64,000 nt of DNA from an uncultured Rickettsiales bacterium (GTDB lineage: Bacteria; Pseudomonadota; Alphaproteobacteria; Rickettsiales; CAZNNM01). The notes under the pieces were generated by a model. The model worked only from the letters and a program-made list of their open reading frames with translations, did no database searches and was not told where the DNA came from. The DNA lies in the NCBI GenBank assembly GCA_964574415.1, contig CAZNNM010000005.1:130132-194131 (forward strand), read 5' to 3'. A program made the position numbers and the translations under genes. Below are positions 2,859-51,919 of this stretch, piece after piece. Positions within the stretch are counted from its first letter, which is position 1. Every line of letters starts with the position of its first letter.

Positions 2859-3659
2859 GCACGCCTCAAAGGACTCACAGCTACGGTTAAACAATATCAC
2901 CGCGCTGCCAAACTCCGCCTTAGCTTCTGCCTTAATGGGCAGAAGCTTGGCATCGTCACTGAAATAGACATGCACCATCGGCTCTTCTTTGAGTTGTTTT
3001 AATTCCTTTTGCGAAGCACCCGCTTCGTAGCGGCGGTTGAAGCTGATATGGATGACCTTATAGGTGGTTTTGCCGATAGAAAGATCCTGCCGGCCATGAA
3101 TCGTGACAGGAATCGTATAACGCCGTCTACCATCATAGACCGGTAAATCCACTTTACCTGGGTTACCCGTTGCGACATAAGACTTCAGCACCTCCCGCAC
3201 TGAAAACGCTGCCGCCAGCGCATCCATACTGCCATTCTTCAACGCTTGTGGCACAGGCGGACGTTTGCCAGGACGTTCAGCTGGAGTCATGGTTTGTTCT
3301 ATGAGTTTTCCTTGCGTATTATAACGCAAACTTACCGTACGCTGCTTGGATTGCACCTGCCCCCAACCCGAAAAACGCTCAGGATGCACTTTACCTTTAG
3401 CATCTACCCGAAAACGGCTACTATTCTCACTGCGGTATTTGGTCAGCCAATAGAGCATGCCTTTTGAAAAAATGTGGATTTTAAAATCATAGAGGCTGTT
3501 CTTTTCCTGAATATCGGCTACCATATAGCCCACATTCATCCCGCCCCAGAAGAGATCATAACGGTTGGTAAGCACCGGCTTATCCCACTGACGTGCAACG
3601 CTTTGTTGCGGGATGATCAGTGCTATAAATGATAGTAATACAATTATCTTTTTCAGCAT
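2841..3659 (-). CDS. secreted hypothetical protein, possibly DUF3108-like
   Basis: N-terminal signal peptide MLKKIIVLLSFIALIIPQQSVA. The beta-rich composition and size fit DUF3108-type periplasmic proteins. The family assignment is from memory only. Confidence 0.55.
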   Translation of the reverse strand: MLKKIIVLLSFIALIIPQQSVARQWDKPVLTNRYDLFWGGMNVGYMVADIQEKNSLYDFKIHIFSKGMLYWLTKYRSENSSRFRVDAKGKVHPERFSGWGQVQSKQRTVSLRYNTQGKLIEQTMTPAERPGKRPPVPQALKNGSMDALAAAFSVREVLKSYVATGNPGKVDLPVYDGRRRYTIPVTIHGRQDLSIGKTTYKVIHISFNRRYEAGASQKELKQLKEEPMVHVYFSDDAKLLPIKAEAKAEFGSAVILFNRSCESFEACLDIVS

Positions 3660-3729: not shown

Positions 3730-6336
3730 ATGAAGTTTGATATTTTTACAGAACGTTCTCGCGAATTGATCCAAGCCGCCCAAAGCCTGGCCGTGGCCAG
3801 AGGGCATCAGCGCTTTACCACCGAACATGTGCTACGTGCGCTTTTGGATGATGAAGAAGGGCTGACAGCCAATCTAATCAACGGTTGCGGGGCCAATCCT
3901 GGTGATATTAGCGACCAGTTAGACATGGCCCTCAAAAAACTCCCCGTCGTACAAGGCGCTGGCGCGGGGCAAATCTACCTGCTACCCGAAACCGCCCGTG
4001 CATTGGAAGAAGCGCAAAACATCGCCAAAAAAGAGCATGATAGTTTCGTCACCGTTGAACGCATTCTGCAAGGTCTTGCTATTCTTGATAAACAACACCC
4101 AACCCCAACGGCTACCATCCTCAATCAAGCAGGCGTAACCCCACAAAAACTCAATGAAGTGATTTCCGCCTTACGCAAGGGCCGCACAGCGCATTCGGCC
4201 ACAGCCGAAAGCCAGATGCAGGCGCTGAAGCGTTACGCTAAGGATATCACCGCCGCTGCGCGTGAAGGCAAGCTTGATCCGGTGATCGGCCGTGATGAAG
4301 AAATCCGCCGTGCGATGCAAGTGCTTTCGCGCCGGACTAAAAATAATCCTGTGCTTATCGGTGAACCAGGTGTCGGCAAAACAGCCATTGTCGAAGGCTT
4401 AGCGCTACGTATGGTGGCAGGCGATGTACCAGAAAATCTCAAAGACAAAAAACTCATGTCCCTTGACCTCGGCGCACTGATTGCTGGCGCCAAATTCCGT
4501 GGGGAATTTGAGGAACGGTTGAAATCCGTGCTATCCGAAGTCAATGCCTCCAATGGCGAGATTATTCTGTTCATCGATGAATTACACACATTAGTAGGCG
4601 CAGGTGCGGCGGAAGGGGCAATGGATGCCTCCAACCTCCTCAAACCCGCTCTAGCACGTGGTGAACTGCATTGCGTGGGCGCAACAACACTTGATGAATA
4701 CCGCAAACATATTGAAAAAGATGCCGCCCTGGCGCGTCGTTTCCAATCGGTGTTTGTGTCTGAGCCAACGGTGGAGGAAACCGTTTCTATTCTCCGTGGC
4801 CTGAAAGAGAAATACGAAGTGCATCATGGTATCCGCATTACCGATAGCGCCCTCGTCTCTGCCGCCACATTATCGCATCGTTATATCACCGACCGCTTCC
4901 TACCGGACAAAGCCATCGATTTGATTGATGAGGCAGCCAGCCGTTTGCGGATGGAAGTGGATAGCAAGCCGGAAGAAGTCGATGAACTCGACCGTAAAAT
5001 CATCCAGCTTAAAATTGAGGCAGAAGCTCTCAAGAAAGAGACGGATAAACCCTCACAAGACCGCCTCGAAAAGCTTACCAAAGAACTATCAGTCCTCGAA
5101 GAAAAATCTGCTGATTTGACCAGCAAATGGCAGGCAGAAAAAGCACGTCTACAAAACGCCCAAAAACTCAAAGAGCAATTAGACAAAGCCCGCAACGAAC
5201 TTGAAATTGCACAGCGCGGTGGAAATCTCGCACGTGCTGGGGAATTAACCTATGGTGTGATCCCAGACTTAGAGAAGAAACTCCAAGACGCCGAAGCCGC
5301 CTCAGGCAGTCGTATGTTGCAAGAAGCCGTGACGGAAGAAGATATCGCCAGCATCGTCTCCCGCTGGACAGGTATCCCTGTCGATAAAATGCTTGCTGGT
5401 GAACGCGAGAAATTGTTGAAGATGGAAGAGCATTTGCGCAGCACCGTCATCGGCCAAGACGATGCACTCCGCGCCATCAGCGATGCTGTCCGCCGCGCCC
5501 GCGCTGGCCTGCAAGATACCGACCGCCCACTCGGCTCCTTCCTGTTCTTAGGCCCGACAGGGGTTGGTAAAACCGAGCTGACCAAGGCATTGGCACAATT
5601 CATGTTTGATGACAAACAAGCCTTGCTGCGGATTGATATGTCAGAATACATGGAAAAGCACGCCGTAGCACGCCTCATCGGCGCGCCTCCAGGCTATGTG
5701 GGCTATGAAGAAGGTGGGACACTGACCGAAGCAGTACGCCGTCGCCCCTATCAGGTGATTCTGTTTGATGAAGTGGAAAAAGCCCATCCGGATGTGTTCA
5801 ACATCCTACTGCAAGTGCTCGATGAAGGTCGTCTCACCGATAGCCAAGGCCGCACGGTAGACTTCCGCAACACCGTTATCATCCTCACCTCCAACCTAGG
5901 TTCGGAAGTGCTTTCTGAGCAGAAAGAAGGCGAGGATAGCAGCCTGGTGCGTGAACAAGTGATGGAAGTCGTCCGCCGTGCTTTCCGCCCTGAGTTCCTC
6001 AACCGCTTGGATGAGATCATCCTCTTCCACCGTTTGGGCCGCAAGCATATGGATGCGATCGTCGATATCCAAATCGCCCGCCTGGCCAAAACCCTGGCAC
6101 CACGCCACATCACCCTACATCTAGACGACAAAGCCCGCACCTGGCTCGCCGAAGCCGGCTTCGACCCCATCTACGGCGCCCGCCCTCTCAAACGCGTTAT
6201 CCAGCGCGAATTGCAGAATAAACTGGCACAGAAGATTCTGGAGGGGAGTGTGAATGATGGGGATGTGGTGGAGGTGAGTGCGAATGAGACGGAGTTGGTG
6301 ATTTCGGTGGGAAGAACCAAAAAAAACGCAGCCTAG
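3730..6336 (+). CDS. clpB: ATP-dependent chaperone/disaggregase ClpB
   Basis: 868 aa with two AAA+ modules ([15 protein letters not shown] and [15 protein letters not shown]), a long coiled-coil middle domain and the Clp N domain. Confidence 0.97.
6184..6336 (+). repeat. direct repeat copy 1 (functional clpB 3' end), partner at 8899-9051
   Basis: Manual codon-by-codon alignment with 8899-9051. The two copies have the same length, and the 68-nt core 6217-6284 is identical to 8932-8999. Confidence 0.9.
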
Positions 6337-6400
6337 CTATTGATTTATATTAATTATCTCTGTACTTAAGAAAATAGTTGTATTTTATATTCATTAAGGT

Positions 6401-6445
6401 ATCATACGCCCATAAAGTTTAATTATTAACTTATGGGCGTATGAT
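6401..6445 (+). promoter_or_regulatory. perfect 15-bp inverted repeat abutting the start codon of the island operon
   Basis: atcatacgcccataa (6401-6415) pairs with ttatgggcgtatgat (6431-6445) across a 15-nt AT loop. The ATG of the next gene is at 6446. Confidence 0.6.
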
Positions 6446-7612
6446 ATGAGCACACAAAAGCACTTTCCCTCTGAATTAACAGAACGTTATACCGAAATAT
6501 TTACCTCACAAACTCAAGATACTCTGGTTTTTTGTGATCCTGGCATTGATGATGCATTAATGCTGGCACAGGTTCTCTCTTCTAAGAAATTGAATGTTCT
6601 TGGTATTGTACCTGGCGCTGGAAATGTTTCTCTTGATAAAACAATCGCTAACACATTGCGTATTGTAGAACTAACAGAACGTACAGATGTTAAAGTATAC
6701 CCAGGATGTAAAGCACCTATCGGCCAAAGCACTGAAAATATGCTTAATGGCGAACAAGTATACGGTGAAGATGGGCTTGGCGGCATTCCATTCAAAGCAC
6801 TTACCACACAAGCACAAACACAAGATGGTGTTGAATTTGCTGCAAATGCTATTCTTACAGCTAAAAAACCTATTACTCTTATTTCCACAGGCGGTTTGAC
6901 CGACGTATATCTCACTCTAGCAAAAATCAAAGAAATCAACCCAGCAGCATTAAAAAATATTGCTGGAATTTCTATTATGGGCGGTGTGTTTGATTATAAA
7001 GCAAATGCCAATGCACCATTACATGTAAATCCAGCAGACCGCGTTGCAGAATTTAATATGATCTTTGATCCTATTGCAACTAAAGGCGTATTCGATATTG
7101 CAGCAGAAGCACATATTACCATCTTGCTTGCTCCATTAGACCTAACCCACACTACCCTCTACCGCAAAGAAAAAGAAACCAAAGCACTTGGCGAAGTTGG
7201 CAACCCTGTTGCTACCGTCATGGCAGATTTGATGATGCAAGTGCCAGTATGGTATGAGGCACGTTTTGGTTTAGCAGATGGCGGTATGCAGCCTGCACAT
7301 GATGTGAATGCAAGCATGGCAATTCTGCACCCCGAGCTTTATACTGGCAGATGGGCCAATGTACGCTCTGTTCTGGATGGGACAGAAGTAGGCAAAACAT
7401 TTGAAGTTGATGGCGGCCCACAAAATGTGTGCATTCTGAATATTCCAGCAGAACGCAACGCAGGCTTCTTTACAGCATTTAATACTGATATGAAAGCATT
7501 TGATGCGCTCAAAGAAAAATCACATCTGCCTTCAGACCATAAGCCCAAAACTGCTCAAGACATTCTTACTCTTGGCAAAGGCAATACTTCTAGCTTTGCT
7601 CAAACACTGTAA
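6446..7612 (+). CDS. inosine-uridine-preferring nucleoside hydrolase (IUNH) family protein, variant motif, C-terminal extension
   Basis: LVFCDPGIDDALML corresponds to DxDxxxDD with the first Asp replaced by Phe. Also GEDGLGG, AEFNMIFDP and QPAHDVN, which align with RihA-type catalytic segments. Confidence 0.8.
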   Translation: MSTQKHFPSELTERYTEIFTSQTQDTLVFCDPGIDDALMLAQVLSSKKLNVLGIVPGAGNVSLDKTIANTLRIVELTERTDVKVYPGCKAPIGQSTENMLNGEQVYGEDGLGGIPFKALTTQAQTQDGVEFAANAILTAKKPITLISTGGLTDVYLTLAKIKEINPAALKNIAGISIMGGVFDYKANANAPLHVNPADRVAEFNMIFDPIATKGVFDIAAEAHITILLAPLDLTHTTLYRKEKETKALGEVGNPVATVMADLMMQVPVWYEARFGLADGGMQPAHDVNASMAILHPELYTGRWANVRSVLDGTEVGKTFEVDGGPQNVCILNIPAERNAGFFTAFNTDMKAFDALKEKSHLPSDHKPKTAQDILTLGKGNTSSFAQTL

Positions 7613-7633
7613 TATTTTTAAAAGGATACTATT

Positions 7634-8767
7634 ATGTCAAGACAACATTATGATTTAGTCATCAGCCTCATTGAAGAAGCAAAACAAGCGTTTATTTCTG
7701 GTGAAGGCACAACACCTGTTGTAGGTGATGTTGAACTTTTTACAAAAGAGGTGGATGGCAAGATCTATAAATTCTTTGGTATTGCGAAAGATAAGCAAGC
7801 CACAACTGATTACACAGCAGTGCGTAGCCATATTCTTCAAGAAATGGGATTAGCACAAGAAACTAGGACATTGCAAATCATTGGCGACTCTGCGCAATAC
7901 AACCCTGAACAATCCAAATTCATGCAGAAGTATTTCAACGAGAAAATGCAAAAATCATCACATGATGATGAATTAGTGATCTATGGTTATACAAGCCGTT
8001 ATAAAGACAACTCATCTGAGAAAACAAAAGGCAGAACAGAAGTAAATGGCTTGGTGAACTACTGGGTTGACCAAAACCCAGAACAAGCTAAACGTGTGCT
8101 AGCAAACGTGGTTTGCTTCCATACACGCCAAGCACTGACAGAAAGTGGCAAAGTTATGTCTGGCTCTACCACCGATAAAGGCTGGGGCTGTGATACATCT
8201 GAACATGTGACCAACTTTTTCCTGGTATATGATACAAAAGGAAAAGGAGCTACATTTGGTGATGACACCATTTCTTCAGATGAATTGACCGATAAATGCT
8301 ATACCTACGAAGGTGGCATCCAATCTTTCCGTCAAGGTGGCTATATGGCAAAACGCGGTAAGGAGCTTAAAGGTGTTTCTGGCCTGCGTGGCGAAAAAAA
8401 TGTTGGCTGTTTTGTTCCGCAAGAAGATGCCTATAGAATATTCTTCTCAGCACCTGAATTCTTTGCTCTTCTGCAAGCGCGTACAGCTGCAAAAGGCTCT
8501 GAGTTAACCCCTGACGAGGTAACCACCATTCGTGATGAATATGTTGCAACAAACTACCAAGATGCACTTGCAGATAAATCACGCCGCGTATTAACAAACC
8601 CACATCGCGATGATGCTGCAACCAAAGATGGCTTATTCAAAGAAGGCTGGGCTGATTTGATGAAAGAGGAGGGCTATAAAGCTGTACAACAACACTTTAA
8701 AGGTAAAACCTTTGAAGAGTTAGTAGCTAAGACGGCGGCTAAAACATCAGCCACACAAAGCCTCTAA
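7634..8767 (+). CDS. hypothetical protein (orphan), co-transcribed with the nucleoside hydrolase
   Basis: 377-aa ORF starting 22 nt after the upstream stop, with an AAGGA Shine-Dalgarno and followed by an intrinsic terminator. No family recognised. There is a weak Rossmann/SLOG-like pattern (ELVIYGYTS ... KCYTYEGGIQSFRQGG). Confidence 0.7.
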   Translation: MSRQHYDLVISLIEEAKQAFISGEGTTPVVGDVELFTKEVDGKIYKFFGIAKDKQATTDYTAVRSHILQEMGLAQETRTLQIIGDSAQYNPEQSKFMQKYFNEKMQKSSHDDELVIYGYTSRYKDNSSEKTKGRTEVNGLVNYWVDQNPEQAKRVLANVVCFHTRQALTESGKVMSGSTTDKGWGCDTSEHVTNFFLVYDTKGKGATFGDDTISSDELTDKCYTYEGGIQSFRQGGYMAKRGKELKGVSGLRGEKNVGCFVPQEDAYRIFFSAPEFFALLQARTAAKGSELTPDEVTTIRDEYVATNYQDALADKSRRVLTNPHRDDAATKDGLFKEGWADLMKEEGYKAVQQHFKGKTFEELVAKTAAKTSATQSL

Positions 8768-8792
8768 TACTCTTTTCTCATTGATGTTAAGG

Positions 8793-8825
8793 AAGCGCTC
8801 AGAAATTTTTCTGAGCGCTTTTTTT
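8793..8825 (+). terminator. rho-independent terminator of the island operon
   Basis: aagcgctcag / ctgagcgctt 10-bp stem, 8-nt loop, followed by a T-run. Confidence 0.8.
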
Positions 8826-8840
8826 ACAGTATACATTCCT

Positions 8841-8870
8841 TCTTATCTTATCTTATCTTATCTTATCTTT
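8841..8870. repeat. pentanucleotide microsatellite (TCTTA)x5 plus degenerate units
   Basis: tctta repeated five times at 8841-8865, then tcttt, tctcc and tcttg. Confidence 0.9.
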
Positions 8871-8898
8871 TCTCCTCTTGCTCAACATACAAAAAATA

Positions 8899-9051
8899 CC
8901 CCTCAAACGCGTTATCCAACGTGAGCTGCAAAATAAACTGGCACAGAAGATTCTGGAGGGGAGTGTGAATGATGGGGATGTGGTGGAGGTGAGTGCGAAG
9001 GAGGCGGGATTGGTGATTGCGGTGAGGAGAACGACGGCGAAGGTGGCGTAA
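8899..9051 (+). pseudogene. orphaned clpB 3' end fragment (last 50 codons plus stop)
   Basis: Translates to [50 protein letters not shown], colinear with the ClpB C-terminus. There is no upstream ORF in frame. Confidence 0.85.
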
Positions 9052-9101
9052 ATTGTCATACACCGACTTGCAGGGGGTAGCATCTCACTCGCACTGAGAT
9101 G

Positions 9102-9494
9102 CTAGGCCTTGGCGCCTACTTTCCGTAACCAGTCACCCAATTGCTCTTCTGTCACTTCACCGGCTGCAAGCCTATAGAAGACAGCGTATTTTTCCTCTTG
9201 TGAAGCCTGTACAGTATAACCGTTTAGTCGTAAAAACAAACAGCACACCACAAATACAGTCCGTTTATTACCATCCATAAAAGGATGATTGCGTGCTATG
9301 CCATAGGCATAGGCAGCCGCGAGCGCCATTATATCAATACCCGCGCCGCCATAATAATAAGTATTCTTGGGCTTATTAAGTGCGGAATCTAATAAGCCTG
9401 CATCGCGCACACCATCTAAGCCACCATGTTCAGCAAGCTGTCTGCGGTGAATAGCAAGCACAACCTCATCAAGCACCCATATCGGTTCCTGCAT
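9102..9494 (-). CDS. doc: Doc (death-on-curing) family Fic-fold toxin
   Basis: The HPFMDGNKRT motif matches the Doc-type Fic motif HxFxDGNKR. The gene is 130 aa and lies 3 nt downstream of a small antitoxin gene. Confidence 0.85.
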   Translation of the reverse strand: MQEPIWVLDEVVLAIHRRQLAEHGGLDGVRDAGLLDSALNKPKNTYYYGGAGIDIMALAAAYAYGIARNHPFMDGNKRTVFVVCCLFLRLNGYTVQASQEEKYAVFYRLAAGEVTEEQLGDWLRKVGAKA

Positions 9495-9497
9495 GGT

Positions 9498-9722
9498 CTA
9501 TTCTGCCAACTTCTTCAATACATCACGATTATCATGCATAATCTGCTCTGCCATATCCATTTGTGATGCGAATTCAGGATTATAGGCTGTGAACTCTATA
9601 CCATTTGGAGTTTCCACAGCATATAACGCATCCCCCTTTTCAACACGCAATTTTGCAAGCACTTCTCTGGGTAAAATCACCCCTAAAGAATTACCAATCG
9701 CCGTCACTTTAATTAATGCCAT
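9498..9722 (-). CDS. AbrB/MazE/SpoVT-family antitoxin
   Basis: 74 aa. N-terminal IKVTAIGNSLGVILPREVLAKLRVEKGD is a looped-hinge-helix (SpoVT-AbrB) signature. Operon partner of doc. Confidence 0.8.
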   Translation of the reverse strand: MALIKVTAIGNSLGVILPREVLAKLRVEKGDALYAVETPNGIEFTAYNPEFASQMDMAEQIMHDNRDVLKKLAE

Positions 9723-9745
9723 AGCTTACCTCCACTTTATTTAAG

Positions 9746-9761
9746 TATAACATATGTTATA
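9746..9761. promoter_or_regulatory. perfect 16-bp palindrome, candidate TA operator
   Basis: tataacatatgttata lies 24 nt upstream of the antitoxin start codon. Confidence 0.5.
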
Positions 9762-9787
9762 ACAAAAGTAAAGCACTATATAACAAC

Positions 9788-9812
9788 AAAAAAGCGGCCA
9801 AAAAGCCGCTTT
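9788..9812 (-). terminator. rho-independent terminator downstream of mreC
   Basis: gcggc/gccgc stem with flanking A-run and T-run. On the minus strand the hairpin is followed by TTTTTT. Confidence 0.6.
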
Positions 9813-9838
9813 TCCACCCTTTTCCTGCATACAGGATC

Positions 9839-10654
9839 CTATTTCACAATACTCACAAACTCCAACCGGTTCCATTCCACAAACGGTTTCACGGTAATTT
9901 TATCCTTTTCAATCGTCTGAATCGTACCAATTGGCAGACCTGGAGGGAAGTAGCCACCGTCACCGGAGGTAATGACCACCTCGCCTAGCACCGTGGAGTT
10001 ATCGGTTGGGATATAGTGTAACTCTGGTGCATCAGTATTGCTACCGCCTAAGATACCACGATAACGTGATGTGCTGGTCATAATAGGGATCCGGGAGTTC
10101 AAGTCTGTCACCAGCAGGATACGGGCGCTATGTTCGCCCACTTCAATAATACGGCCCACTAAACCCACCGCATTCACCACCGCCTGGCCTTTTTTCACAC
10201 CATCGGTAGAACCTGCATCAATGCTCACCGAATGCAAATACGGGCTGCGGCTATCAGCCACAACACGAGCTGTAATATAGGATGTCTCTTGCGCACCTAC
10301 GAAATTGAGCAATTCGCGCAGATGGATATTCTCCAAATTAGCCTGCTGAGCAGCCAGCAATTGTTTGCGCAATTGGGTATTTTCAGAGCGTAACGCTGCA
10401 TTTTCATGACGGATATAGAAGATTTCATTGGTGGATTTGCCCATTTGGATCACCGAATGGATCGGGCGCGCCACCACATCCACCACGGGCATCACCGCAT
10501 CGACGATATTGTTGCGGATCGTATCAGTCACCATCGGATTCATACGTCCCGCCACAAGCAGCATCACCGATGCAATCAGCAACGCCACCGCCGAAAGGCG
10601 CTGCATTGTCAGCTTGAAAGGTATAGCAAGATGGAGGGCGCGATGTCTAGCCAT
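9839..10654 (-). CDS. mreC: rod shape-determining protein MreC
   Basis: N-terminal TM segment, coiled-coil LRSENTQLRKQLLAAQQ, then beta-rich domains (GLVGRIIEVGEHSARILLVTD). Lies downstream of mreB. Confidence 0.85.
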   Translation of the reverse strand: MARHRALHLAIPFKLTMQRLSAVALLIASVMLLVAGRMNPMVTDTIRNNIVDAVMPVVDVVARPIHSVIQMGKSTNEIFYIRHENAALRSENTQLRKQLLAAQQANLENIHLRELLNFVGAQETSYITARVVADSRSPYLHSVSIDAGSTDGVKKGQAVVNAVGLVGRIIEVGEHSARILLVTDLNSRIPIMTSTSRYRGILGGSNTDAPELHYIPTDNSTVLGEVVITSGDGGYFPPGLPIGTIQTIEKDKITVKPFVEWNRLEFVSIVK

Positions 10655-15236: not shown

Positions 15237-15324
15237 TGTCATACGCCGACTTGATCGGCGTATCCATCCTTAAACTATAGCTTTATATTTTAGATGGATT
15301 CACCGATCAAGTCGGTGAATGACA
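15237..15324. repeat. MITE-like nested-hairpin repeat
   Basis: tgtcatacgccgacttgatcggcgtatccatcc ... agatggattcaccgatcaagtcggtgaatgaca. The termini are inverted and each is a hairpin. Confidence 0.85.
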
Positions 15325-47188: not shown

Positions 47189-47278
47189 GATGGGAACTCC
47201 TTGATAAGGAATTTATAGAGGATTTTGGGGGGAGTGGCAAGTAAGGTAAAGAATTGGGGCTGACTCATTTTGAATTTT

Positions 47279-47493
47279 TGTCATCCCGGACTTGGCAGCT
47301 CGATGAAATCAAGAGCGGGATCCACTGTTATGGTGGCGTGATTGCTAACAATCTCGTTGGAAGCACCAGTCTTGGTGGATTCCGGATCAAGTCCGGAATG
47401 ACAATGAAAATACTGTCATTCGCCAACTTGATCAGCATCGCTGTAGACTATTCGTCATTGCGAAGCCACATAGTGGCCATGGCAATCCAGGGG
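47279..47493. repeat. three adjacent nested-hairpin repeat units
   Basis: 47279-47403 is a full unit that aligns with 58730-58836 but has an 18-nt insertion in the left hairpin. 47414-47440 is degenerate. 47453-47493 is a GTCATTGCGAAGCC...GGCAATCCAGG arm. Confidence 0.85.
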
Positions 47494-50983: not shown

Positions 50984-51919
50984 CTATAGCTCCGGCCTAA
51001 AATCTATCTGAATTTCATGCCAGCCATTTGCACCTTCATATTTTTCTGGAGGCGGCAAATATTTAAGTGGGCTACAGACTTTCACTGCACGTAATGCGCT
51101 AGCAACAAATGCCGCATAGAATGGATCATTCCCAAAACTCGCCACAGGAGCCGCCCTAACATTAATGACATCACCCTGTTTTGTCAGCTGCACCGTAATA
51201 GGGACATACATCTGGCTCACATCACGCCCACCCGCATTATACGACCAACAACTCTTAAATTGACCTGCAATCGCATCTTTCTCCGTTGTACTCAGCGGAA
51301 TACCCGCATCATAATTTTGATCCGATTTATTGCTTTGAACAGCTTGATTCTTGTCCTCTAGCTTTTCTTCTTTAGCCTGCTGTTCTGCTTTTTCACTAAG
51401 ATCGCGCTCTAACGCTTCCCAGGCATCCTCAGCAGAGGCATCCTTTTTTGGCTCAGGCTTCTTAGGCTCTACCTTTTTAGGCTCTGGTTTTGGAGGTTGA
51501 GGCTTAGGCGGTTCAGGCTTCTTAGGTTCCGGCTTAGGCTCCTCTTTTTTCGGCTCTGGCTTTTTCTCTTCTACTTTCTCTACCACATCTTCTTTTGGCT
51601 TCGGAGGAGGCGGAGGCGGAGTTTCGTCTTTTATTTCGGGTTTTTTAGGCTCCGGTTTTGGAGGTTGAGGTTTAGGAGGCTCTGGTTTCTTTGGTTCAGG
51701 CTTTTTAGGTTCTGGTTTCTGAGGTGCAGGCTTAGGTGTAGGCTTCTGGGTCACAGTCGCAGGCTTAACATTTGTAACCGATGATACCGGCAACAACTCC
51801 ACCGTCACAATATTCTCCGGCGGTAATTCCTCAAAGAAGGATGGTATGCCGAAATAGCTTATGATAAGCACGGCTAAATGCAGGAGCACTGAATAAATAA
51901 TGCCGCGCTTTAAGGTCAC
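50984..51919 (-). CDS. tolA: Tol-Pal system protein TolA
   Basis: N-terminal TM segment, long Pro/Lys/Glu-rich domain II (KPEPKKPEPPKPQPPKPEPKK occurs twice), C-terminal TolA domain III. Lies downstream of tolQR. Confidence 0.8.
   Translation of the reverse strand: MTLKRGIIYSVLLHLAVLIISYFGIPSFFEELPPENIVTVELLPVSSVTNVKPATVTQKPTPKPAPQKPEPKKPEPKKPEPPKPQPPKPEPKKPEIKDETPPPPPPKPKEDVVEKVEEKKPEPKKEEPKPEPKKPEPPKPQPPKPEPKKVEPKKPEPKKDASAEDAWEALERDLSEKAEQQAKEEKLEDKNQAVQSNKSDQNYDAGIPLSTTEKDAIAGQFKSCWSYNAGGRDVSQMYVPITVQLTKQGDVINVRAAPVASFGNDPFYAAFVASALRAVKVCSPLKYLPPPEKYEGANGWHEIQIDFRPEL

Follow-up and report, generated by a model that had tools for sequence, protein, structure and literature searches.

A candidate integrase-less, two-gene islet between two versions of the clpB 3' end in an uncultured Rickettsiales bacterium

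How can a chromosome come to carry one intact clpB gene and, 2.7 kb downstream, a second and detached version of the end of the same gene? This question is raised by a stretch of 64,000 nucleotides from an uncultured Rickettsiales bacterium (assembly GCA_964574415.1, contig CAZNNM010000005.1, positions 130,132 to 194,131), which is referred to at its full length as the window. An earlier note on this DNA had described the arrangement as the scar of an integration into the 3' end of clpB. According to the analysis given here, the segment from about position 6285 to 8999 (2,715 bp) is on balance probably a horizontally acquired islet, flanked by attachment (att) sites and devoid of an integrase, of the type known from e14 at icd and from cis-mobilizable elements (CIMEs).

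The two clpB 3' ends

The repeat is made up of the following parts (positions are those of the window).

3730..6336, plus strand: intact clpB, an open reading frame (ORF) of 868 aa; its last 50 codons and stop codon form the left repeat copy
6184..6216, plus strand: left arm of the left copy, continuous with the host clpB and of the same codon style as upstream clpB
6217..6284, plus strand: left instance of the 68-nt identical block, equal to 8932-8999 without any mismatch
6285..6336, plus strand: tail now fused to clpB, with 18 differences to the orphan tail in these last 52 nt
8899..9051, plus strand: orphan clpB 3' fragment (right copy), consisting of arm 8899-8931, block 8932-8999 and tail 9000-9051 (KEAGLVIAVRRTTAKVA*)

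The ClpB encoded in the window is 100% identical to NCBI protein P0001. The segments 6184-6336 and 8899-9051, each 153 nt long, are gapless and colinear direct copies (BLASTN E 6e-43 within the window) which correspond codon for codon, and the coordinates and all counts given for them in the earlier note proved to be right. The stop codon takes the same position in both copies, the translation of the orphan ending in ...SAKEAGLVIAVRRTTAKVA*. Altogether, 24 differences are present. Six of them are located in the left arm (6184-6216 against 8899-8931, at 6186, 6204, 6207, 6210, 6211 and 6216), every one synonymous (P for six of six about 1.6e-4); the 68-nt core is free of differences and the tails diverge, all as described before. 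Outside the block the arms are 18-35% diverged, and with 24 differences in 153 nt an identical run of at least 68 nt has a probability of about 1.5e-5, thus the clustering of the differences is non-random. To the left of 6184 and 8899, no homology exists between the copies. In the right copy, homology sets in abruptly with the P codon of PLKRVIQ, a conserved motif, and a run of 17 identical nt lies at this edge. A third copy of the 153-nt repeat was not found within the 64-kb window. Differences on both sides of an identical block, with frame and stop kept in both copies, point to a mosaic of two functional clpB alleles under purifying selection, not to a fresh duplication which has since decayed.

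The right copy had been regarded as a displaced gene end without an ORF upstream. The only ORF which covers it has 57 aa, uses a TTG start, begins 21 nt upstream of the copy and follows a strong terminator and a microsatellite.

In their composition, the two tails differ. The orphan tail has a GC content of 0.615, the fused tail one of 0.481; the last eight codons of the latter are A-rich and lead into a spacer of 24% GC, so that the drop in GC begins within the fused tail and not beyond it. The orphan tail is consequently the G/C-richer one, as previously claimed, but its codon style is unlike that of upstream clpB, to which it had been compared. C-ending codons account for 62% of the 50 codons upstream and for none of the 22 block codons and 17 orphan-tail codons. 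The proportion of G at third codon positions (G3) is extreme from the identical block onward, a style common to both copies. When 20 host genes sampled in the window were compared in stretches of 37 codons, the orphan tail came out with the most extreme G3 content.

The insert and its two genes

Between the repeat copies and inside the right end of the insert, these features were recognized.

6337..6445, plus strand: AT-rich leader of the insert, 109 nt, GC 0.24
6399-6447, plus strand: leader hairpin of 17 pairs, a one-base bulge and 3 more pairs, with an 8-nt loop (z = -4.6)
6446..7612, plus strand: cargo gene 1, for a 388-aa member of the inosine-uridine-preferring nucleoside hydrolase family (PF01156, E 7e-54)
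7634..8767, plus strand: cargo gene 2, unannotated protein of 377 aa with a predicted fold similar to the SLOG-type N-terminal (MHR1/2) domain of TRPM
8785..8832, plus strand: intrinsic terminator of the cargo operon, GC-rich hairpin followed by T7 (dG -25.3 kcal/mol, z = -5.1)
8841..8873, no strand: (TCTTA)6.6 microsatellite inside the right insert end, 25 nt before the orphan fragment

The insert has a GC content of 0.40, compared to 0.53 for clpB and 0.48 for the window, and the GC content at third codon positions (GC3) amounts to 0.285 and 0.344 in its genes, compared to 0.547 in clpB and 0.548 in mreC. It is compositionally foreign, in accordance with the earlier description of an AT-rich insertion of about 2.6 kb; the two co-oriented genes with their own terminator were recovered as well. 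The non-coding parts of the insert comprise just 109 and 131 nt. The leader hairpin spans the ATG of the nucleoside hydrolase gene, lacks a T-run and belongs to no Rfam family; it might terminate the transcription of clpB or control whether the cargo is translated. Over positions 6100-9900, Rfam gave only chance matches to miRNA-like hairpins. The microsatellite is the same in an independent unitig (L001), and its place close to the putative att site may be due to arm-type sites of a recombinase or simply to slippage.

As another origin of the arrangement, a transposon or insertion sequence was weighed, and so was a tandem duplication of local DNA. Nothing beyond the direct repeat itself speaks for such an origin. 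The insert ends show no terminal inverted repeats and neither short direct repeats nor a target duplication; their best end-to-end match measures 7 nt and is equalled by most shuffles. No transposase is present. Besides, the within-window comparison revealed no similarity of the insert to neighbouring DNA, as a local tandem duplication would require, and the copies are diverged alleles under purifying selection. The tests of insert ends, Pfam content and within-window similarity contradict this explanation, which is hardly credible.

Cargo gene 1 reaches 183.9 bits against the PF01156 cut-off of 34.2 and contains the N-terminal aspartate-rich motif DPGIDDA. The protein is RihA/RihC-like, with scores far under the equivalog cut-offs of RihA, RihC and UriH. 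Cargo gene 2 has no sequence match in Pfam, NCBIfam, PADLOC or the chains of the Protein Data Bank (PDB), and the cargo is no defence system recognised by PADLOC. The AlphaFold 2 (AF2) model of the second protein (pLDDT 84, pTM 0.85) retrieved, in a Foldseek comparison with the PDB, the MHR1/2 domains of TRPM2, TRPM4, TRPM5 and TRPM8 with E-values down to 4.5e-7, at moderate TM scores of 0.42-0.48 and an identity of 9-12%. In TRPM channels, the MHR1/2 region counts as a SLOG domain, and that of TRPM2 binds ADP-ribose. The family of cargo gene 2 comprises 279 clusters at 50% identity among 1.84 billion representatives and features the conserved motifs QIIGDS, FGDDxxSSD and EGGxQS.

The homologues examined (proteins P0124-P0127 and P0129-P0274; loci L084, L088 and L089) include fusions to IU_nuc_hydro domains in both orders (P0137 and P0166; P0164 and P0168). 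Others are fused to AAA_28 domains (P0130, P0132), which we take to be of the NadR kinase type. On a Parachlamydia contig, a homologue adjoins a different nucleoside hydrolase, about 20% identical to cargo gene 1, and a protein of the giant virus Terrestrivirus is a clear structural homologue (E 1e-17). Because homologues are fused or adjacent in other organisms, the two cargo genes appear from sequence comparison to form a functionally coupled module, which probably acts on nucleosides or on a compound related to NAD or ADP-ribose. The cargo forms a self-contained operon of two genes with its own terminator; its transcripts probably arise by read-through from clpB or start at a weak promoter within the AT-rich leader. 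The combination of a nucleoside hydrolase with a family of putative SLOG fold offers a lead to an undescribed nucleoside or nucleotide pathway, possibly an NAD-related one.

Native tail, relatives and origin of the arrangement

Which of the two tails belonged to the resident gene, and how the second one arrived, can be approached through the right flank and the nearest relatives. The flank contains the following features.

9054..9070, plus strand: copy of a dispersed motif (TGTCATACRCCGACTTG), 3 nt past the orphan stop codon
9071..9111, no strand: hairpin between the orphan end and the convergent doc (z about -2.5)
9102..9722, minus strand: Doc toxin (130 aa) and AbrB/MazE-type antidote (74 aa) (PF02661, PF04014, TIGR01550, TIGR02609), outside the repeat-bounded insert
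9839..10654, minus strand: mreC, the first right-hand gene which is orthologous in the sister species

The only other member of the ClpB 90% cluster is P0121, derived from two Logan assemblies (L082 and L083). With 94.7% amino acid and 84% nucleotide identity to ClpB of the window, it represents a sister species. In both assemblies a DUF3108 gene and clpB are followed, after 4 nt, by a Fic toxin with antitoxin and by mreC-mreB-fliL-fliM; both insert genes and the second clpB end are absent. These loci are the nearest to an empty site in the collections searched, though not a clean one. The check for an empty site in relatives, which the earlier note had proposed, thus gave a sister clpB without the insert, but its tail matches neither copy closely and its toxin-antitoxin (TA) pair is non-orthologous. 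None of the three observations which the earlier note had named as refuting its reading was made: the sister has neither the two genes nor the duplication, the insert does not resemble neighbouring DNA, and the two 153-nt segments are colinear. Other strains of the same species were not found in the collections searched.

To the right of the insert, the window features the hairpin, the Doc/antidote pair (GC3 0.36-0.41) and then mreC, mreB, fliL and fliM. MreC shares 240 of 271 residues with its counterpart in L082, and the synteny of mreC-mreB-fliL-fliM is kept. Doc and the Fic protein of the sister (9102-9722 against L082 3277-3878) have 52 identical residues (about 40%) over about 125-130 aa, and no relationship exists between the antitoxins; the modules occupy the same place on the same strand without being orthologous. 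Accordingly, conservation on the right sets in with the mreC terminator, and variability extends over the entire interval between clpB and mreC. Relatives with 80% and 78% ClpB identity carry yet other genes behind clpB, and this interval is, irrespective of the islet, a hot spot of replacement. A degenerate clpB remnant beside the toxin-antitoxin modules was found neither in the window nor in L082 or L083.

On mixed evidence, the orphan tail is quite likely the native end of clpB, as the earlier note had supposed. The motif TGTCATACACCGACTTG, which begins 3 nt beyond the orphan stop, belongs to a genome-dispersed repeat family and marks this flank as resident. In the window, TGTCATACRCCGACTTG occurs in four copies at up to 2 mismatches (9054-9070, 15237-15253, 15308-15324 on the minus strand, and 47414-47430), compared to none in 100 shuffles, with looser variants at about 47275-47400. 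The copies often form inverted pairs, e.g., the 88-nt palindromic unit 15237-15324, and the family looks like a genome-specific one of the repetitive extragenic palindromic (REP) or miniature inverted-repeat transposable element (MITE) kind. The same conclusion is drawn from the terminator-like hairpin which separates the orphan from the convergent doc and which probably served originally as a terminator for both directions, and from the topology, since the homology starts at the inner insert edge and runs outward to resident DNA, as a reciprocal exchange predicts.

What speaks against a native orphan tail is the protein sequence of the sister tail (TEKELVIKVGKAKIRAA), which agrees with the fused tail in 10 of 17 residues and with the orphan tail in 6 of 17. 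Sister and fused tails share the pattern E-L-V-I-x-V-G, and most ClpBs and the orphan have G-L-V-I. These data allow a distinctly improbable alternative, according to which clpB has kept its native tail in the fused one: DNA of foreign origin, reaching from 6337 to at least 9051, would have been inserted just past the native stop codon, with a donor clpB fragment at its far end, and the identical block would be a later gene-conversion tract. It is favoured by the derived pattern shared with the sister and by the exceptional G3 content of the orphan tail. Two coincidences are required: the foreign DNA must have landed precisely at the stop codon, and the clpB end which it carried must have been oriented like the resident one. 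Moreover, the three tails are nearly equidistant in nucleotides (32, 29 and 34 of 52), GC falls already inside the fused tail, and both the genome-specific repeat and the terminator-like hairpin lie behind the orphan tail. The three left arms are nearly equidistant, too (27-28 of 33). Codon style is not decisive, as both copies are G3-rich from the block on and the sister clpB likewise has its G3 maximum at the 3' end, with a milder bias (L082 about 3150-3272). The 68-nt block itself is matched by the sister clpB at only 50 of 68 positions.

A separate observation concerns an internal periodicity of 30 nt in both clpB ends (6239-6300 and 8954-9015; 2.1 copies, 78-81% matches). In the sister species the periodicity is far less pronounced (about 60%), and chance in G-rich coding sequence may be behind it.

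The insert was recovered from independent data. Logan unitigs L001 and L093 (SRR9107545) derive from the same strain and are identical to the window; the insert and both inner junctions are reproduced base for base. At k=31, the unitigs break within the 68-nt block on both sides (L001 corresponds to 6255-8961, and L093 ends at 8970), thus these data are compatible with an integrated as well as with a circular topology. This feeds the suspicion of an assembly path through the repeat. The cell would then contain a clpB without interruption, ending in the orphan-type tail, and separately a 2.7-kb circle in the attP form. The 196-kb NCBI contig passes through both copies, ordinary reads of 100-150 nt and large assembler k values span 68 nt, and the circle would be without a replication gene; such an artefact is very improbable.

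For the islet preferred here, the following course of events is proposed. A circular DNA equipped with a version of the last 50 codons from a clpB gene would have undergone reciprocal recombination of the att type with the chromosome, and in this way the segment would have entered the clpB 3' end. After the exchange, clpB would still be intact, its end now being a substitute supplied by the element (left copy, attL-like), and the former end would be an orphan (right copy, attR-like) displaced downstream by 2.7 kb. The 17-nt identical run at the PLKRVIQ edge is a possible true crossover region. From the anatomy we infer that a site-specific recombinase made the exchange. Since the islet has no recombinase of its own today, it might be a decayed remnant in the manner of a CIME or a cassette moved in trans; alternatively, the ready-made locus could have been imported from a related strain by flanking homologous recombination. 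In the earlier note, site-specific integration was expressed as a B-O-P' ... P-O-B' arrangement. The anatomy of the locus and the preserved clpB agree with this, but no recombinase, attP form or second element copy was found in any of the collections searched. The simple view of the 68-nt block as the crossover core O has to be abandoned. One exchange leaves every position with the host version in one copy and the element version in the other; a single reciprocal crossover can therefore not create a 68-nt identity in copies which are otherwise 18-35% different, and the identity must predate the event or follow it by conversion. Gene conversion may be its source, or the element and the host may have exchanged DNA before; previous cycles of this kind, with crossover points that shifted, could supply a pre-existing identity.

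This origin of the 68-nt identity is one of several points which weigh against an att-flanked islet; the closeness of the sister tail to the fused tail is another. Further ones concern the missing machinery. A Pfam scan of all 63 non-overlapping ORFs of at least 90 aa in the 64-kb window found no integrase, recombinase, resolvase, transposase or phage gene, in agreement with the earlier reading of the window as free of integrase, excisionase and transposase; the scanned ORFs are housekeeping genes and one Doc/antitoxin pair. With only 109 and 131 nt of non-coding DNA in the insert, a decayed element must have lost everything cleanly. In addition, neither a second element copy nor an attP-like form nor a close relative of the cargo was obtained: the 68-nt core and the cargo family are absent from the viral contigs searched, the core and a degenerate protein-level pattern from the JGI metagenomes, the insert DNA and the cargo protein from plasmids and phages, and a close relative of cargo gene 2 also from the protein collection. 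A genome scan with ClpB provided 80 other alphaproteobacterial clpB loci (the best among the matches listed 72% identical), of which none has a second clpB 3' end within up to 10 kb or to the contig end. A profile search with three alternative 50-aa ClpB ends yielded only a contig-edge fragment (P0128/L092), which is uninformative. In phage records, matches to the ClpB C-terminus were mostly unannotated and the annotated ones lay in full-length Clp genes; in IMG/VR, clpB stood at a contig end followed by a conserved gene of about 220 aa. No attP-like fragment was recovered from either collection.

The absence of a recombinase gene within 64 kb also lends some weight to RecA-dependent homologous recombination without any site-specific enzyme. 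Here, a circle with a clpB 3' fragment would have entered by a single crossover in the 68-nt block, or the clpB-mreC interval with the islet would have been imported from a related strain by a double crossover in the genes on either side. The sole stretch long enough for RecA, i.e., the 68 nt, lies exactly between the diverged arms, and the non-orthologous Doc/antitoxin pair with its low GC3 might indicate that the whole interval was exchanged. Nevertheless, this explanation appears quite unlikely. It leaves unexplained why a foreign clpB fragment should run from the conserved motif to the stop codon, which resembles an attP-type structure made earlier; the 68-nt identity would still be needed beforehand, an arm divergence of 18-35% disfavours homologous exchange, and the genome-specific repeat beside the orphan tail argues for a resident flank.

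A bolder version of the att-flanked islet is a live, minimal and cargo-only cassette. A recombinase encoded elsewhere in this sparsely sampled alphaproteobacterial lineage would recognize the DNA coding for PLKRVIQ and swap cassettes together with their own gene ends. Repeated integration and excision with shifting crossovers would then account for the 68-nt block in diverged arms as well as for the clpB-mreC variation between the sisters. We regard this as unlikely. If it were true, the cassette would deliver a module of a nucleoside hydrolase and a putative SLOG partner, whose family is also present in an amoeba-associated chlamydia and a giant virus.

Apart from this locus, the window resembles an ordinary alphaproteobacterial chromosome with argB, clpB, mreBCD, a che operon, groESL, tol genes, uvrC, serS and tatABC; it further encodes a penicillin-binding transpeptidase (PBP2 type) and a RodA/FtsW-family protein, and no tRNA gene was found in it. 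Several tandem arrays of 15 and 30 nt were observed at 51442-51745 in an ORF on the minus strand (50984-51919; 311 aa, no Pfam match). This ORF is located between an ExbD/TolR-family gene and a second Pfam-less ORF before tolB, which is, judged by gene order, where a repetitive TolA-like linker protein might be expected.

Comparison with known systems

The replacement of a gene end at an attachment site is textbook biology, and no concept is changed by the islet. As far as found, clpB was previously undescribed as an attachment gene, no such description being present in the literature searched. The homology starts at one of the most conserved motifs of ClpB, and such a target would be as portable across species as a tRNA gene. 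With two genes, a terminator and no mobility gene, the islet is near the smallest possible att-flanked unit and offers a clean test case for the ways in which cargo is kept or relocated when it encodes no recombinase.

Small integrated modules which themselves encode no recombinase also exist in the form of integrative mobile elements exploiting Xer (IMEX) and pdif modules, which depend on the host XerCD. In contrast to the clpB islet, they use dif-like sites of 28 bp and not coding sequence with a replacement end; judged by eye, the clpB repeat has no obvious dif-like palindrome.

Recombinase-less cassettes at the end of staphylococcal rlmH (orfX) are known as pseudo-SCC elements (SCC, staphylococcal cassette chromosome). 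In the islands of Prochlorococcus, degenerate tycheposon remnants are marked by partial tRNA copies (bioRxiv 10.1101/2020.12.28.424599). Both resemble the clpB islet in being cargo-only or decayed, in bearing att copies at a gene 3' end and in having their recombinase elsewhere or being immobile. They differ by the serine recombinases (Ccr) acting at rlmH, the tyrosine recombinases acting at tRNA genes and the short identical att motifs; moreover, no sign of an array of successive insertions is present at clpB.

CIMEs keep attL and attR at the target gene's end and have lost the genes for integration and transfer, as in the decayed elements of the ICESt1 family at streptococcal fda (PMC5704250). 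The clpB locus likewise has both repeat copies and no mobility genes, the att function of its repeats being suggested by the arrangement. CIMEs are recognized through a cognate integrative and conjugative element (ICE) or integrative and mobilizable element (IME) with the same att site, often in tandem, whereas no cognate element, tandem partner or third att copy for the clpB islet was found in the 80 alphaproteobacterial clpB loci, the window, the viral contigs, the metagenomes, the plasmids or the phages. Furthermore, streptococcal att repeats are short, e.g., 27 bp for ICESt1, in contrast to the mosaic gene ends of 153 nt at clpB.

The nearest counterpart in anatomy is the cryptic prophage e14 in E. 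coli K-12, which is integrated in the 3' end of icd and supplies a replacement end (PMC13626634). It measures 15 kb and encodes intE and xisE, whereas the clpB insert has 2.7 kb and no recombinase; the target is icd instead of clpB, and the differences of icdC are spread to the right of the crossover, whereas those at clpB flank an identical block of 68 nt. In E. coli K-12, icd and icdC are homologous over 165 nt up to the stop codon, with 12 differences, an abrupt start with 11 identical nt and no homology leftward; this repeat is similar in size to the 153 nt with 24 differences at clpB, and both start abruptly and run to the stop. Moreover, e14 and phage 21 at icd share with the clpB islet a protein-coding gene as target, a 3' end which is supplied by the element and keeps the gene intact, and a displaced former end which persists on the far side as an orphan pseudogene.

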